Assembly: GCA_963705255.1 (NCBI GenBank)
Contig: OY970061.1
Span: 2,304,001 to 2,368,000, forward strand
Length of the DNA: 64,000 bases
Direction of reading: 5' to 3'
From: an uncultured Methanoregulaceae archaeon
GTDB taxonomy: Archaea; Halobacteriota; Methanomicrobia; Methanomicrobiales; Methanospirillaceae
Below are positions 1,804 through 34,077 of this stretch, in pieces. Every line of letters begins with the position of its first letter. The first letter of the stretch is position 1. A program made the translations under genes and the position numbers. The notes below the pieces were generated by a model. It saw only the letters and a list, made by a program, of their open reading frames with translations. It had not been told where the DNA came from and did not search any database.

Positions 1804-1872
1804 GATAAAATGTTAACACTGTTAACATATCAATCTGTCGGTAATTTAAACCCGGGTCCTCAATACACGATC

Positions 1873-2244
1873 ATGTTCGTGCGCCAGGAACGGATAGCAG
1901 CGCTGCTTCTGGTCGGTGTTGCAGTCGTGGTGATCGGGGTCCACCTGGTACTGGATTCTGTCGGGAAACAACCCTTTGCCCGGATGTTCACCAATGCCTC
2001 TGCGGACGGGGAACTTGTCTATGCCGAAGGTACCGTCAGCCAGGCCACCCTTACCCGGAGCGGCGGGCACCTGGTCCTGAGCCTAGACGAGGTGACGGTT
2101 TTTGTACCTGCACAGGCTGCGGAAGGGCTGACCGTGCACAAAGGGGACCGGATATCGGTGTACGGGACTGTCCAGTCGTACCAGGGGAAAAAAGAGATAC
2201 TCGTAAGCTCGGGCAGGGATATCCGGATTATGCCGGCGGAGTGA
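1873..2244 (+). CDS. Membrane-anchored OB-fold protein
   Basis: N-terminal TM; GHLVL...KGDRISVYGTVQSYQGKKEI OB-fold pattern; start set at ATG 1873. Confidence 0.65.
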   Translation: MFVRQERIAALLLVGVAVVVIGVHLVLDSVGKQPFARMFTNASADGELVYAEGTVSQATLTRSGGHLVLSLDEVTVFVPAQAAEGLTVHKGDRISVYGTVQSYQGKKEILVSSGRDIRIMPAE

Positions 2245-6943: not shown

Positions 6944-7018
6944 TGGGCCCGATGTGATTCGAACACATGACCTCCCGGTTATCGAGCCGGGCGCACCACC
7001 TGGCTATGCTACGGGCCC
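6944..7018 (-). tRNA. tRNA-Ile (GAT, or CAT/Ile2) with an apparent 8-nt anticodon loop
   Basis: GGGCCCGTAGCATAGCCAGGTGGTGCGCCCGG-CTCGATAA-CCGGGAGGTCATGTGTTCGAATCACATCGGGCCCA cloverleaf. Confidence 0.85.
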
Positions 7019-10737: not shown

Positions 10738-10821
10738 CGCTGAGGAGGGGAATTGAACCCCCGAGGCACTTTCGCACCACAGGCTTTCCAGGCCTGCGCC
10801 TTACCGCTAGACTACCTCAGC
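10738..10821 (-). tRNA. tRNA-Ser(GGA)
   Basis: GCTGAGGTAGTCTAGCGGTAAGGCG-CAGGC CTGGAAA GCCTG-long variable arm-GGGGGTTCAATTCCCCTCCTCAGCG. Confidence 0.95.
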
Positions 10822-16296: not shown

Positions 16297-16369
16297 TAGC
16301 CCGGAGCAGATTCGAACTGCTGTCGGGGGATCCAGAGTCCCCCATGATTGACCGCTACACTACCGGGCT
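16297..16369 (-). tRNA. tRNA-Gln(CTG)
   Basis: AGCCCGGTAGTGTAGCGGTCAATCAT-GGGGA CTCTGGA TCCCC-...GTTCGAATC...CCGGGCTA. Confidence 0.95.
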
Positions 16370-23937: not shown

Positions 23938-24009
23938 CGGACCCAGCGGGAATCGAACCCGCGTCCTTGGGTTCGAAGCCCAAGAGGATATCCTCTACCC
24001 CATGGATCC
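23938..24009 (-). tRNA. tRNA-Arg(TCG)
   Basis: GGATCCATGGGGTAGAGGATATCCTC-TTGGG CTTCGAA CCCAA-GGACGCGGGTTCGATTCCCGCTGGGTCCG. Confidence 0.93.
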
Positions 24010-30226: not shown

Positions 30227-31066
30227 TTACTCGAATTTTGCAACGAGTTTCTTCTTGTTGACGATAATACCATCTTTCTTGTGGGGCTGGCGGAAGACGC
30301 TGTCTCCTGCCTTCTCGAGCTCCCGGGCCTGGTCGCAGAGTTGTGCCGCGACCTTCATCATCTCGTGAGCGCTTGCAACGATCGGGATGTATTTCTCCCA
30401 TTCCTTGGTCATGAAGCAACCCTTGACGTTCTGGCCTGCAACAGCCATTGCAATTTCGTGGGCAGCGCGTGCCTTTGCAAGCGCGTAGGGGTTGGTGAAC
30501 TCGCCATCGACAGCCTTGTCAGTGGTCATGATGACCTTCGGCAGCTCAATTGCGTCGCCTTTCTTTCCGGCCTTGACCTGGTCGATGACCTTGTCGAGGG
30601 CAAGCTGCATCTTGCGGAATGCACCGGTAAGTGCCAGCACTTTGACGAGGTTGCCGTTGTAGTCGGCCATCTCGACGGGGTCGAGGAACTCGCGGCGTGC
30701 ACCGATCATGGAGTCTGCCTTCATGATGATGTACCCGAACTTGCTCGCCTTGACACCTTCCCACTCCTTCTTCGTGGTTACATCATCAGTGATGATGACA
30801 ACCGGGATGCCTGCTGCAGCGAGCTGTTCGCGGGCACCGGTCGGTCCTGGAAGAACCCCGTTGGGTGAGACTACAATACAGAAGTCCGGTTTATATGCCT
30901 TCAGGTTGGAGACCACGCGGTCAACATCCGCCGGCTCGAGTTTAGTCCCGCTGGTCGCCATGAATGTCTGCATATCTTCACGGTCTGCTCTCTCATCGAG
31001 GAGCAGCTCTGCCATCACACCACTTGCAATGTTGCCTAATTTGGCAACGCCTACTTTAACAACCAT
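30227..31066 (-). CDS. mtd: F420-dependent methylene-H4MPT dehydrogenase
   Basis: [34 protein letters not shown]. Confidence 0.96.
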
Positions 31067-31267: not shown

Positions 31268-31672
31268 ATGAAGGAGGGGTTGCTCACCGATCGCCAGATG
31301 GAAGTTCTCAGGTATCGAAAGCAGGGTCTGACCCAGCAGCAGATAGCTGACATCATCTCCACATCAAAGGCGAATGTCTGCACTATCGAAAAGAGCGCCA
31401 TGGAGAACATCCGTCGGGCAAAAGAGACGCTCGAATTCCTCTACACCCTTGATGCGACACACCTCTGTACAATACCGTCAGGAACGGACCTTTTCAACGT
31501 TCCTGCAATCATATTCGGGGAAGCAGAGAAGATCAATATCAAGGTCAAATACGATACCATTTCCCTGATAAACCGGTTGAGGGAGTCGAGGTCCCAGGCA
31601 TGCAAGGCCCGTGTTGTGTGCGAGGATATCAGCGTATACATAACCGACCAGGGAGAACTGTATTTTGGGTAA
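31268..31672 (+). CDS. tfx: Tfx-family DNA-binding protein
   Basis: LTDRQMEVLRYRKQGLTQQQIA...SKANVCTIEKSAMENI. Confidence 0.85.
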   Translation: MKEGLLTDRQMEVLRYRKQGLTQQQIADIISTSKANVCTIEKSAMENIRRAKETLEFLYTLDATHLCTIPSGTDLFNVPAIIFGEAEKINIKVKYDTISLINRLRESRSQACKARVVCEDISVYITDQGELYFG

Positions 31673-31732
31673 AAGATACAGCGACCTTCCGGATTTGATG
31701 AGGAACCTCAGAACCTCTCCCCAAAACTGGCA

Positions 31733-31744
31733 TATATTTATATT
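31733..31744 (+). promoter_or_regulatory. TATA box of the ribosomal operon leader
   Basis: TATATTTATATT about 25 nt upstream of the 5' end of the structured element at 31765. Confidence 0.6.
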
Positions 31745-31764
31745 CTTTTCTCTGCAATAATTAT

Positions 31765-32221
31765 GGAAGCCGATATGAGGTTATCCTTTGCGGAGTCCGC
31801 GTGCCTGACGTACGGTGCATGCCGGATTTTGCATACGGCGGGACCTAGCCTCCGGACACAGGAGCGGTTCTGCCGTGGGTATACCTCGATTGGTGGAGAC
31901 CCTCCCGGGCGGGAGGGTACCCGAGAAGGAGTTGTGATTTATCACAACAGGCTGACAGAGTGGGTCTGATCAGGCGCATGGGCGGACGTTCGTGCAACGA
32001 GCCCGGTTCTTCTGCTGTGAAATACGGCAGAAGGAAGCGCAATAGTCAGGATCTTCTTTCGCGAGACAGGGACGCTGGTGCACACCAGCAGAGCGATGAG
32101 CTGGTCTCATACGCATAACCAGAGCCGGGTGAAGCATTCGTCCAGAACAATCGTGCAATCCGTCAGAATGACTGCACGGCATCTGCACTCGATGAAGCAC
32201 CCGTGTCGCGTGTCGGCTTCT
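31765..32221 (+). ncRNA. Large structured RNA or 5' leader upstream of rpl3
   Basis: Closing stem GAAGCCGATAT/GTGTCGGCTTC and more than 10 internal helices with G-U pairs consistent with the + strand; no credible ORF. Confidence 0.65.
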
Positions 32222-32310
32222 AGAGAAGCGGAGTTATCACACAATCTCGGATTCATCTCAATTCGTGTCGCAATGAGAATAACCTACACGCAGAAAGGAT
32301 TGATTTACAC

Positions 32311-33324
32311 ATGCCAAAAATAAACAGACCACGCCGTGGTTCTCTTGCATTCAGCCCAAGGAAGCGTGCAAAGAGCCCAATCCCGAAATACCAGTCGTGG
32401 GCCCCCAGCCAGGGAGCACCGATCCTGCAGGGGTTTGCCGGATACAAAGTAGGTATGACGCATGTTGTCATGGTGGACGATCACAAAAACAGTCCTACCG
32501 AGGGGAAAGAGATCATGGTGTCCGTCACCGTTATCGAAGTCCCCACCATGAAAGTTGCCGCAATCCGTGCCTATTCACGGGATACCTATGGCAAACACGC
32601 CTTGACGGAGATATGGGCAGATCAGCTTGACAGCGTGCTTGGGCGCAGGATTACCCTGCCCAAAGACTACGACAAGGAAGCAGCCCTCAAGAAATTTTCG
32701 GATGCCTTAAAAGCAGGTACGGTAGCCGAGATCCATGCTCTTACGTATACACAACCGGCATCTCTCTCCGGTGTTCCCAAGAAAGTTCCCGACCTGATGG
32801 AGATCAAGATCGGGGGTGCAGACCTCGGCAAACAGTTTGAATTTGCCCAGGGTCTTCTCGGGAAAGAAGTATCCCTCGAAAGTGTGGTCCAGACGGGTGC
32901 CTATGCGGACATTACCGCAATAACAACCGGTAAGGGGACACAGGGCGTCGTAAAGCGCTGGGGAGTCGCCCTGCGAAAGCGCAAACACGCAGTCGGCGGC
33001 AAAGAGCGCCACATCGGCACTCTTGGCCCGTGGAACCCGCACCACATCCGCTGGGAAGTTCCCCAGATCGGACAGATGGGATTCCAGCAGCGAACCGAAT
33101 TCAACAAGCGGATCCTGAAAATCAGCGAGGATGCCAGTGAGGTAACCCCGGCCGGTGGATTCCTCCATTACGGTGTACTCAAGAACCCGTATGTTCTCAT
33201 AAAAGGGTCAATTCCCGGCCCGGTAAAACGGCTCATCCGTATCCGTCCGGCAATCCGCCAGGGTGAACATGTCGTCAGGATGCCGACAATCCAGTTCGTG
33301 AGCGTCCAGAGCAAGCAGGGATGA
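32311..33324 (+). CDS. rpl3: 50S ribosomal protein L3
   Basis: [25 protein letters not shown]. Confidence 0.98.
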
Positions 33325-33330
33325 TCAGAG

Positions 33331-34077
33331 ATGAAAGCACAGGTTAAATCACTTGACGGCGGAGTCACAAAAGACATCGAACTCCCGGAGATCTTTTCCG
33401 AGGATTACCGCCCCGATCTGATCAAGAAGGCAGTGATGGCCCTCCAGAGCACACGGAGACAGCCTCACGGGACATACCCGTATGCAGGTATCTGTTCATC
33501 GGCAGTCGGCTGGGGAAGCGGTCGCGGTTCATCCCACGTTCCCCGTATCAAGAACGGGTCGCGTGCAGCAAAAGTCCCGCAGGCAAAAGGTGGCCGCGAG
33601 GCACACCCCCCGGTCGTTGCGAAGATATTGATCAAGGAGATCAACCAGAAGGAAAAACAGAAGGCCTTCCGGTCCGCTGTTGCCGCAAGTATCAGCCAGG
33701 ACCTTCTCAAACTCCGGGGACACACCTTCGAAGGTGCAGTACCGATCGTCTTTGAGGATACGTTCGAGTCACTCGGCCGCACGCAGGACGTCATCTCTGC
33801 ACTTACCACTGCAGGTGTCTACAACGACATCGAACGGGCAAAGGAGAGCAAGAAGGTCAAGGCAGGAAGAGGCAAGATGCGCGGGCGCAGGTTCAAGCAG
33901 CGCAAGAGCCTCCTGATCGTGACTGCAGAAAAACCGCTTGTTGCAGCACGCAACCTTTCCGGCGTGGATGTCGTTACCGTTGACCAGCTGAACGTTGAGC
34001 ACCTCGCACCCGGCATGCAGGCCGGACGGTTGACCGTCTGGACAGAAGGTGCACTCATACGCCTGGAGGGGAGGTAA
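33331..34077 (+). CDS. rpl4: 50S ribosomal protein L4
   Basis: RPDLIKKAV, WGSGRG, GGREAHPP. Confidence 0.98.
   Translation: MKAQVKSLDGGVTKDIELPEIFSEDYRPDLIKKAVMALQSTRRQPHGTYPYAGICSSAVGWGSGRGSSHVPRIKNGSRAAKVPQAKGGREAHPPVVAKILIKEINQKEKQKAFRSAVAASISQDLLKLRGHTFEGAVPIVFEDTFESLGRTQDVISALTTAGVYNDIERAKESKKVKAGRGKMRGRRFKQRKSLLIVTAEKPLVAARNLSGVDVVTVDQLNVEHLAPGMQAGRLTVWTEGALIRLEGR

Follow-up and report, generated by a model that had tools for sequence, protein, structure and literature searches.

The long leader of an archaeal rpl3-rpl4 operon is a remnant of a PF02598/COG2106 gene with an RF03135 core

In the window, i.e. the whole stretch of 64,000 nucleotides that was analysed, tfx and rpl3 are separated by a spacer of 638 nt (31673-32310), within which the mRNA of the rpl3 operon has its non-coding leader (Table 1). 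Of the three ORFs on the + strand of this spacer, two were scanned (31763-31969 and 32078-32323) and gave no Pfam match, and the ATG at 31763 is not conserved in relatives. The strong TATA box described in the first-pass annotation of this DNA is indeed present 22 nt upstream of GGAAGCC at 31765. The box and the 5′ block show no variation in any of the 19 genus sequences (pattern GCATA..T.TATAT), and the same promoter layout precedes the intact PF02598 gene of a relative (locus L031, see below). The order tfx-spacer-rpl3 was found in 73 of the 76 loci examined from the order, with a spacer of 491-983 nt in all 71 order loci that have tfx and rpl3 and lack an intact PF02598 gene.

Table 1. Features of the rpl3 leader and its neighbourhood (window coordinates)
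Feature	Coordinates	Strand	Details
tfx	31268-31672	+	Upstream neighbour, outside the RNA; Pfam TFX_C, 112.3 bits
Promoter, archaeal type	31730-31745	+	TATA box TTTATAT at 31737-31743; chance expectation 0
Entire non-coding leader (rpl3 operon mRNA)	31765-32310	+	Predicted start about 31765
5′ domain	31765-31896	+	5′ block; GCCGAT/ATTGGT; TGAGG..TATCC/GGGTA..CCTCG; variable hairpin P3; hairpin ACGGCGGGACC/GGTTCTGCCGT
Hairpin ACCCTCCC/GGGAGGGT	31899-31918	+	5/7 pairs changed on both sides; 63% of cells paired, MAFFT alignment poor here
Relic of PF02598/COG2106 gene	31922-32065	+	Residues about 107-159, OB-fold insert; 2 in-frame TGA
Invariant hairpin GTTGTGAT/ATCACAAC	31931-31948	+	97.7% paired; 7/8 pairs never vary
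RF03135 (L4-Archaeoglobi) three-way junction	31966-32049	+	48.6 bits vs cut-off 34.5; model positions 1-85 of 85
Conserved block GATCTTCTTTCGCGAGAC	32050-32067	+	91.9% mean pairwise identity, 16 species
Hairpin GCTGGT/ACCAGC	32074-32089	+	84% paired; both sides changed in 3 pairs
Variable 3′ subdomain	32093-32203	+	Closed by CGGGTG/CACCCG; identity about 40%
Conserved 3′ arm TCGCGTGTCGGCTTC	32204-32220	+	Partner is the 5′ end, or AGGCTGAC (31949-31956) + CGCG (32059-32062)
rpl3-proximal part	32221-32310	+	CTCGG, hairpin CGTGT/ACACG, purine-rich AGGATTGAT, then ATG
rpl3	32311-33324	+	Pfam Ribosomal_L3, 288.3 bits; first gene after the leader
rpl4	33331-34077	+	Pfam Ribosomal_L4, 128.7 bits; second gene after the leader

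Evidence for transcription comes from metatranscriptome contigs of relatives in four runs. Two of these contigs (1717 and 1500 nt) begin ~15-25 nt from the equivalent of 31765 and continue into rpl3, contaminating DNA and true 5′ ends being beyond the reach of such data. The listed RNA runs contain 0.04-0.06 of the sampled words, and the host organism is in none of them. No weight is given to the parts left uncovered by the contigs (31650-31865 and 32109-32189), to their depths or to missing back-joints. Some short RNA contigs over the core show a word depth above that of the rpl3 contigs; contig depth cannot rank regions.

The first-pass annotation had described the element as an uncharacterised RNA, naming a match to a known Rfam family as the result that would count against this description. 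Such a match was found for the central 84 nt of the leader, which belong to RF03135, and the rest remained unmatched. The cut-off of this family is also reached in 14 of 18 loci of relatives. No other Rfam leader family matched the leader; NiCo-AnGGAG, TCV_H5 and sR7 appeared at E 1.7-8, far below their cut-offs, and were treated as chance. In agreement with the earlier reading, neither RNase P RNA nor SRP RNA matches at the locus, and both were found elsewhere in the genome. Across the phylum the motif is present in 97 of 151 sampled genomes, once per listed genome, and exceeds the cut-off in 87. It lies 379-622 nt upstream of rpl3 in each of 30 phylum loci examined, with rpl3 downstream in all of them, and 262 nt from the rpl3 ATG in the window. 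Outside the host genus, 64 of the 69 order loci searched have retained it.

All 14 sequences that were folded singly adopt the RF03135 three-way junction (-37 to -63 kcal/mol). Among 90 distinct sequences, 20 of 29 motif pairs changed on both sides, with 450 double-changed cells vs 119 ± 12 in shuffles, and 92.5% of cells are paired vs 27-48% when the pairing is slid; because this alignment was fitted to the covariance model, its pair counts lean towards structure. An alignment made from sequence alone (MAFFT and RNAalifold) covered 24 of 30 coding motifs, i.e. 28 phylum loci plus L025 and L031, after six near-duplicates were dropped. It recovered the outer helices only (21 pairs, 4 compensatory), and the variable hairpins were recovered by the single folds and the model-based alignment. 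Inspected by eye, the RF03135 consensus contains an open frame ending in G-E-R-V-T-V-R.

The complete leader folds at -221.2 kcal/mol on the + strand (z -3.88; 0/100 shuffles as good) and at -191.8 kcal/mol on the - strand (z -2.99). A model of 96 pairs was evaluated on 27 genus sequences, giving 89.7% paired cells vs 37-44% when slid. Changes on both sides affect 35 of these pairs, and the 142 double-changed cells compare with 56 ± 6 in shuffles (0/500 as high). Because the aligned sequences are relatives of each other, shuffle controls overstate significance for the leader and the motif alike. An independent run of RNAalifold found compensatory changes in 23 of 90 pairs, and in another genus (g5) the conserved core sits within a large fold, with changes on both sides in 36 of its 206 pairs. 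The leader region is thus under RNA-level selection, and conserved helices in relatives, on which the earlier proposal depended, do exist in the genus as well as across the 90 motif sequences.

Helix by helix, the support is uneven. The 5′ domain is restricted to the host genus, with partial presence in g12. One of its helices (alignment columns 7-24/130-148) is 97.7% paired and has four pairs with changes on both sides, 7-13 double changes per pair occur at the base of hairpin P3, and hairpin ACGGCGGGACC/GGTTCTGCCGT is 89.6% paired with three such pairs in the 27 genus sequences. In the same set, 10 of 11 pairs of hairpin TCTGCTG/CGGCAGA changed on both sides. Most of the local hairpins proposed at first are therefore real and covarying, and GTTGTGAT/ATCACAAC is paired yet invariant. 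The proposed long-range helices fared differently. CGGGTG/CACCCG was upheld, with three pairs changed on both sides and 64% pairing in a stretch that MAFFT aligns poorly. GGTTAT/ATAACC (68% paired) does no better than shuffles, and GTGCCTGA/TCAGGCGC (38% paired) clashes with the RF03135 fold. Closer to rpl3, CTCGG (32247-32251) is the predicted partner of CCGAG (31921-31925), and a hairpin CGTGT/ACACG is predicted at 32264-32290; the pairs of both are invariant and carry no covariation signal. The purine-rich AGGATTGAT at 32296-32304, upstream of the rpl3 ATG, may be a Shine-Dalgarno site, going by the 16S 3′ end. No pairing is predicted over the rpl3 start region, as RNAalifold leaves 32291-32310 unpaired. 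A bacterial-type scan of the + strand found no terminator-like site and no hairpin with a U-tract, and no canonical k-turn was seen by eye in the RF03135 internal loop or in the GTGAT...CTGA stretch.

The 11-bp terminal stem of the first-pass annotation occurs in the MFE fold, and 92.3% of its cells are paired in 27 sequences, with one compensatory pair and four C-A mismatches. Its score was equalled by 42 of 500 shuffles, and its arms have rival partners: GCCGAT/ATTGGT is 100% paired and AGGCTGAC/GTYGGCTT 96.8%. These rival pairings are at least as good as the terminal stem, so that the stem stands as a predicted helix and loses its claim to be the unique closure of the element. The combined alternative is GCCGAT/ATTGGT plus AGGCTGAC/GTCGGCTT. 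This bears on the suggestion that a separate, stable ncRNA of ~455 nt is cut out via the terminal stem and acts in trans. The pairing and the compensatory change in the stem would suit such an RNA, as would the deeper short contigs over the core, with the restriction on contig depth given above. Conversely, the two RNA contigs of relatives run unbroken from the element into rpl3, and no second promoter-like TATA box was seen by eye between 32220 and rpl3 (the program scan covers the bacterial promoter type only). No back-joining joints are listed, which carries no weight for contigs of relatives. Moreover, the 3′ arm and the 5′ domain belong to one genus (the latter partly to g12), unlike the phylum-wide core. 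We regard an excised RNA as improbable; excision had been offered on the strength of a stem that has no unique support.

The origin of the leader became apparent from the gene-bearing relatives. RF03135 lies inside an ORF of 274-419 codons, a full-length homologue of the L031 protein, in 28 of the 30 best loci; the other two are cut short, and one of them (L055) was otherwise seen intact. In a scan of named genomes, which returned haloarchaeal loci throughout, the motif again lies inside the gene in 11 of 11 loci, occupying bases 1847-1949 where the gene start is at 1501. For the L031 protein, the PF02598 profile scores 194.6 bits, and PDB 1k3r is a homologue at E 3.8e-40. The PF02598/COG2106 gene ends just upstream of rpl3; in most gene-bearing relatives 0-13 nt separate its stop from the start of rpl3. 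COG2106 genes have been reported within ribosomal protein operons of diverse archaea (PMC2584109), and the OB-fold insert of the SPOUT enzyme has been described (PMC1829167).

In the window, a tblastn search with the L031 protein retrieved the relic at E 2.4e-6, with stops. About 50 codons are recognisable and the SPOUT halves are missing; reading frames and stops vary among the 19 genus sequences. Block GATCTTCTTTCGCGAGAC derives from V-R-I-F/S-S-R codons with a 2-nt insertion, hairpin GTTGTGAT/ATCACAAC is coding sequence in the intact L031 gene, and GCTGGT/ACCAGC has a homologous hairpin in the L031 coding sequence. Further matching stretches suggested by a global DNA alignment of the leader with the L031 gene (ACGGCGG, CTCGATTGG) were given no weight because the order of the blocks differs between the two. 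Words resembling GGAAGCCGA among haloarchaeal N-terminal codons are probably chance, since the block is part of the 5′ untranslated region in L031. The PF02598 profile had no match in the single-contig host genome, a result that reads as "not found" rather than as proof of absence because the genome is 89.5% complete by marker genes. Among 121 genomes of the order, five have a long open PF02598 match (four full length, one ended by the contig end), 21 have short pieces only, and 95 have none. The leader is a remnant of a PF02598/COG2106 SPOUT methyltransferase gene: the homology is present and the coding capacity is gone. It is this origin from a lost gene that is new here, the motif itself being already known as RF03135. 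The origin also accounts for a leader far longer than ordinary ones. Since two GTDB families contain both intact and decayed states, the host gene was apparently lost more than once in Methanomicrobiales-like lineages.

A relic of this kind could be no more than a decaying pseudogene whose structure is left over from coding sequence; the stops and frameshifts in the homologous codons fit this notion, as do spacer parts that drift freely (31788-31834 and 32093-32203, 35-40% identity). Neutral-like divergence is confined to these two parts. The core blocks are 92.6% (31920-31965) and 91.9% (32050-32067) identical among 16 species, comparable with second codon positions of rpl3 and far above third ones (86.4/92.3/54.7% for positions 1/2/3). 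In addition, compensatory changes are widespread in leader and motif, each of the 71 gene-less loci has kept a spacer of several hundred nucleotides, and the motif persists in nearly all order loci searched outside the genus. Mere decay is very unlikely on these grounds. Judged from these identities, RNA structure and flanking blocks have remained under strong purifying selection after decay of the frame.

The conserved blocks might act as DNA instead, e.g. as sites for Tfx or another factor of the operon promoter. The adjoining tfx gene in the order is compatible with this, and invariance leaves several of the best-conserved blocks with no covariation signal. Still, haloarchaea conserve the motif to the same degree with a tRNA gene and not tfx as upstream neighbour in the examined loci, 150-300 nt separate the promoter from the core downstream of it, and helices with compensatory changes indicate RNA. 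A DNA-level role is the least probable of the readings considered.

With loss of the host gene and persistence of the RNA, the latter appears to be needed independently of the protein; the retained motif suggests a job of its own, probably in control of the ribosomal operon. We consider it probable that the element is a gene-relic 5′ leader of the rpl3-rpl4 operon whose RF03135 core is retained as a cis-acting operator. Among the options listed at first, the "giant autoregulatory leader" fits best, given the conserved promoter, the reach to rpl3, the RNA-level selection and the curated motif; autoregulation as such stays a proposal. In related archaea the PF02598/COG2106 gene is the first gene of the ribosomal operon, and the codons for the OB-fold insert of the enzyme contain the three-way junction. 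In the host genus and most of the order the reading frame has decayed and the RNA structure has been kept, the remnant being rebuilt around the retained core into a large, covarying, lineage-specific fold. The core would then serve as operator within this mRNA, its most likely ligand being a ribosomal protein encoded further along the operon. Translational coupling could be the mode of action in gene-bearing relatives, most of which have the gene's stop so close to the start of rpl3. In the host genus the operator would have to use a long-range fold, mRNA stability or premature termination, and the distance of 262 nt to the rpl3 ATG, far for a translational operator, weakens the operator reading. 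The broader proposal is that RF03135 is a dual-use RNA operator in rRNA-methyltransferase codons throughout the phylum, and that in Methanomicrobiales-like lineages the RNA outlived its host gene, whose remains became a structured ~0.5 kb leader; we favour it with some reserve.

The structure may alternatively stabilise the operon mRNA or serve in its processing rather than act as a ribosomal-protein operator. Either a structured 5′ end would shield the polycistronic mRNA from 5′-3′ exonucleases, or a defined cleavage site would separate the output of the enzyme from that of the ribosomal proteins. The same facts would be explained, i.e. the cis position, the single copy per genome and the survival of gene loss, and the high stability of the motif and its distance from the rpl3 start, here and in relatives, are in line with such a function. 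So is the absence of rRNA mimicry in our searches. The best matches between leader and rRNA operon in blastn-short were 10-mers of 20.3 bits, no better than those of 40 shuffles (20.3-34.2 bits), which leaves the rRNA mimic of the first-pass annotation without a basis. Searched with the motif covariance model up to E 1, the rRNA operon gave no match, a sequence-level result with shape-only mimicry outside it. Some ribosomal-protein leaders likewise lack rRNA mimicry (PMC7247131). Against a stabiliser or processing element stand the invariant single-stranded blocks in 31920-31965, which such elements seldom need and which resemble the binding site of a specific factor. The contigs of relatives, a kind of data that cannot reveal processing sites, showed none. 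We judge this explanation unlikely.

To our knowledge, few cis-regulatory RNAs are known in archaea. Comparative support for RF03135, published as a borderline candidate, is now much stronger: one and the same three-way junction persists whether or not the sequence is coding, with covariation among 90 sequences. At the loci studied here that have the motif in a coding context, the "leader" is the inside of a gene, which bears on annotation and on the search for motifs, since screens of intergenic regions only will miss it. If the proposed history is true, it would be a clear example of how a coding gene can become a regulatory leader, and a natural experiment separating RNA function from protein function. 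Haloferax volcanii, matched by both RF03135 and PF02598 in control searches, is a tractable model with motif and gene family.

The closest known system is the L4-Archaeoglobi leader, RF03135 (Eckert and Weinberg 2020, PMC7247131), rated "borderline" by its authors in Table 1, where L4 is proposed as ligand by analogy with bacteria, in which it is a known ligand. The element in the window shares the whole model, the three-way junction and the position upstream of rplC-rplD-rplW-rplB on the same strand. The main text of PMC7247131, as distinct from its supplement, has no mention of RF03135 inside PF02598 coding sequence, and in the literature on the motif, COG2106 or archaeal L4 autoregulation we found no paper placing the motif inside a COG2106 gene or describing a relic; the supplements of PMC7247131 may bear on this. 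In contrast to the family as defined, the motif here is one domain of a ~545 nt leader with about 10 further helices, and it occurs in another class than the one that gave the family its name. Over most of the phylum, moreover, the motif sits inside an intact PF02598 gene and not, as in the window, in an untranslated leader with no intact ORF. The PF02598/COG2106 methyltransferase gene itself (MT0001, PDB 1k3r; human C9orf114/SPOUT1) shares the position directly upstream of rpl3 and the OB-fold codons, but the frame is broken here and 545 nt are left vs about 830 needed. The L1 operator of Methanococcus mimics rRNA and sits at the start of the gene it regulates. It resembles the present case in that an RNA structure overlaps coding sequence where a ribosomal protein operon begins, and differs in that no mimicry was found here and the host gene encoded an enzyme, since lost. 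The S10 leader of Escherichia coli is a structured RNA that heads the operon for L3, L4, L23 and L2 and is regulated by L4. The element described here has no sequence or model similarity to it, is about three times longer, lacks a terminator-like hairpin with a U-tract by the bacterial rule, and has an origin from a decayed gene that is without counterpart there; binding of L4 is putative here. Still, both are structured RNAs heading an L3-L4-L23-L2 operon, and the likeness to this established L4 leader (PMC7247131) suggests that feedback by an operon product may operate in the host as well.

RF03135, the "L4-Archaeoglobi" ribosomal protein leader of Rfam, is matched at 31966-32049 (48.6 bits over all 85 model positions; cut-off 34.5 bits), within the noncoding leader that precedes rpl3 (31765-32310). 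Of 18 loci searched in relatives, 14 have the match too. The large RNA proposed as uncharacterized in the first-pass annotation is therefore not wholly so, its centre belonging to a known family. That it is neither RNase P RNA nor SRP RNA is borne out, both being found elsewhere in the same genome. The leader region is present in one copy (2.6 Mb genome, single contig). Its + strand (31760-32310) folds at -221.2 kcal/mol (z -3.88), equalled by 0 of 100 shuffles, and the - strand at -191.8 (z -2.99). TATA box and GGAAGCC block are without variation in 19/19 sequences of the genus. The order tfx-spacer-rpl3 is kept in 73 of the 76 loci fetched from the taxonomic order (L062-L137), with spacers of 491-983 nt in the 71 lacking the PF02598 gene discussed below and of ~1075 nt in the two that have it.

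Coordinates of features in the window, in the window genome (G000) and in one haloarchaeal locus
Feature	Position	Strand	Remarks
ORF of 311 residues	29285-30220	+	no Pfam match; adjoins mtd gene
mtd gene	30227-31066	-	MTD, 354 bits
tfx-type regulator gene	31268-31672		upstream neighbour of spacer
tfx-rpl3 spacer	31673-32310		638 nt
TATA box TTTATAT	31737-31743		22 nt before GGAAGCC at 31765
rpl3	32311-33324		rpl4 next downstream
four tRNA genes	6944-7018, 10738-10821, 16297-16369, 23938-24009	-	only other Rfam matches in window
archaeal SRP RNA gene	G000:C1:2301055-2301365		RF01857, 165.7 bits; ~2.6 kb before window start
RNase P RNA	G000:C1:657561-657899		
RF03135 in L143 (example)	1847-1946		inside gene match 1501-2331

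Across the phylum, RF03135 was found in 97 of 151 genomes sampled, exceeding the cut-off in 87, and once per listed genome. In the 30 best phylum loci rpl3 always follows on the same strand (gap 379-622 nt), and in 28 of them the motif is located wholly within an ORF of 274-419 codons; in most of these best loci 0-13 nt separate the ORF end from the rpl3 start. All 28 ORFs match, near full length, the protein of L031, a relative's locus with an intact gene (blastp E 1e-20 to 1e-77); the other two loci are incomplete, one of them, L055, being intact by eye. The L031 protein is assigned to PF02598 (194.6 bits) and is a homologue of MT0001 (PDB 1k3r, E 3.8e-40) and human C9orf114, i.e. the host gene family is COG2106 SPOUT. 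PMC1829167 describes this family as an OB-fold domain set into a SPOUT domain, and PMC2584109 notes its occurrence in operons for ribosomal proteins in diverse archaea, with a proposed role as 23S m3U methyltransferase. In 11/11 named haloarchaeal loci the motif (68.9-77.3 bits) occupies bases 1847-1949 with the gene match starting at 1501, roughly codons 116-150, and 1-2 tRNA genes on the opposite strand lie upstream instead of tfx (gene context from haloarchaeal and other phylum loci, L141-L220 and L032-L061). As RF03135 is typed as a cis-regulatory leader, Rfam-based annotation puts a "leader" within a gene in those loci. In gene-bearing lineages the inner hairpins carry amino acid changes on both arms and stay complementary, so that selection acts on the structure in addition to the coding constraint. 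Among the controls, Haloferax volcanii matches both RF03135 and PF02598, and Methanosarcina acetivorans and Methanocaldococcus jannaschii are matched by neither; hence, gene and motif may have been lost jointly in some lineages.

In the genus of the window organism the PF02598 gene is dead. The recognizable remnant comprises ~50 codons (31922-32065, residues ~107-159 of the L031 protein) and contains two in-frame TGA codons in the window. The REGVV and GSD...AWVDV pieces occupy different frames across the 19 sequences of the genus, in which the stops also vary in position, and the leaders of close relatives differ by one-nucleotide indels. The leader measures 545 nt versus the ~830 nt needed for the gene, and holds no trace of the two SPOUT halves. 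The PF02598 Pfam model gave no match in the window genome (89.5% complete by marker genes), i.e. the gene is not found, its absence being unproven. Five of 121 genomes of the order carry a long open match to the gene, four at full length (g7, g78 and one g70 genome) and one (g70) ending at a contig end; 21 hold short pieces only, many with stops, and 95 none. Because the GTDB families f2 and f4 each include both intact and decayed states, we infer at least three separate decays, provided that both families are monophyletic. In L031 the intact gene has its start codon ~10 nt downstream of the same 5' block, so the 5' end of the leader in the window is the former 5' untranslated region of that gene.

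The gene relic is under selection as RNA. Mean pairwise identity among 16 genus species reaches 92.6% (31920-31965), 91.9% (32050-32067) and 88% (5' block), with 35-40% in variable leader parts; codon positions 1/2/3 of rpl3 in the same species show 86.4/92.3/54.7%. A 96-pair model tested on 27 genus sequences has 89.7% of cells paired versus 37-44% with partners slid, and 35 pairs are changed on both sides (142 cells versus 56 +/- 6 in shuffles, reached by 0 of 500). An independent RNAalifold run predicted 90 pairs, 23 with compensatory change, including a stem with strong covariation at the foot of P3, the variable hairpin of the 5' domain. The RF03135 domain forms the same three-way junction in 14/14 single folds (z -1.65 to -5.44), that of the window and those of 13 sequences taken from lineages with the gene. 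R1, a covariance model trained on genus sequences, recovers the domain at full length in 91 of 100 sources (64/69 order loci outside the genus, 5/7 older loci, 21/22 gene-bearing phylum loci, and the window). In the R1 alignment 20/29 pairs are changed on both sides (450 cells versus 119 +/- 12; 0/500) and 92.5% of cells are paired, figures that are overstated, the alignment having been fitted to the model and its sequences being related. The single folds and a sequence-only genus alignment agree with these counts in direction.

In the architecture of the leader, support is good for both junctions, the three-way one of the 5' domain (31765-31896) and that of RF03135, and for three hairpins (31899-31918, 31931-31948, 32074-32089). 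The terminal stem by which the first-pass annotation closes the element (31766-31776/32210-32220) fares less clearly: 92.3% of cells are paired with one compensatory change, but it shows four C-A mismatches and is equalled by 42 of 500 shuffles. Its competitors are two pairings, GCCGAT/ATTGGT with 100% of cells paired and AGGCTGAC/GTYGGCTT with 96.8%, the latter converting the four mismatches into U-A pairs. Stem and competitors could represent alternative conformers, and the data favour neither. Two long-range helices of the first-pass annotation were rejected, GGTTAT/ATAACC, whose 68% pairing does not exceed that of shuffles, and GTGCCTGA/TCAGGCGC (38% paired). RNAalifold predicts further long-range pairs, CCGAG/CTCGG and CGCG/CGCG, which are invariant and thus give no covariation signal. 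Promoter, 5' block and core (the RF03135 junction with flanking conserved blocks) are order-wide; 5' domain, 3' arm and rpl3-proximal blocks occur in this genus alone, apart from a partial presence in genus g12. Genus g5 (nine sequences, L118-L126) shows its own large fold round the same core, with 206 predicted pairs, 36 changed on both sides. Its leader (~640 nt) has a different 5' block (AAGAAACCGCTCTG) and a near-invariant core of ~190 nt, longer than that of the window's genus and ending ~290 nt before rpl3.

As no public RNA run contains the window organism, transcription was judged from contigs of relatives (80-99% alike) in four metatranscriptomes, which cover the core and the rpl3 start. 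One run yields two contigs, of 1717 and 1500 nt, that span core and rpl3 and whose starts extrapolate to ~31780-31791; shorter contigs from three runs reach ~31768-31784. A start at the leader 5' end and co-transcription with rpl3 fit these contigs, which prove no 5' end and may derive from library DNA. In three runs (X1, X3, X4) short contigs over 31920-31973 and 32028-32081 are deeper in words than rpl3 contigs (32298-32378), e.g. 165 versus 24.5 in X1; contig depth being no basis for ranking regions, this gives no more than a hint that a leader fragment is stable or attenuated.

The analysis shows that a cis-located conserved RNA fold outlived its host gene. We infer that this fold would act on the operon mRNA as an operator. 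Where relatives have the gene, the whole operon could be controlled via translation of the first ORF, as its stop and the rpl3 start nearly abut; relic lineages would require another link, e.g. a long-range fold, mRNA stability or premature termination. No terminator-like site was found in the leader by a bacterial rule, and RNAalifold predicts no pairing over the rpl3 start. The main rival explanation takes the conserved fold as an mRNA stabilizer or processing signal. For the operator, L4 as ligand is a proposal by analogy; the rRNA mimicry suggested in the first pass was not found. Overall, the initial observation is confirmed in part and its interpretation partly supported.

A literature search, covering the main text of PMC7247131, returned no description of a gene-relic origin or of the in-gene placement seen in the loci examined. 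In that paper (Eckert and Weinberg 2020), RF03135 is given for Archaeoglobi, before rplC, rplD, rplW and rplB, the motif is graded "borderline", and L4 is named as ligand solely because it is a known ligand of a bacterial leader. At its core the element is a member of this known family, but its overall form here is new and much larger.
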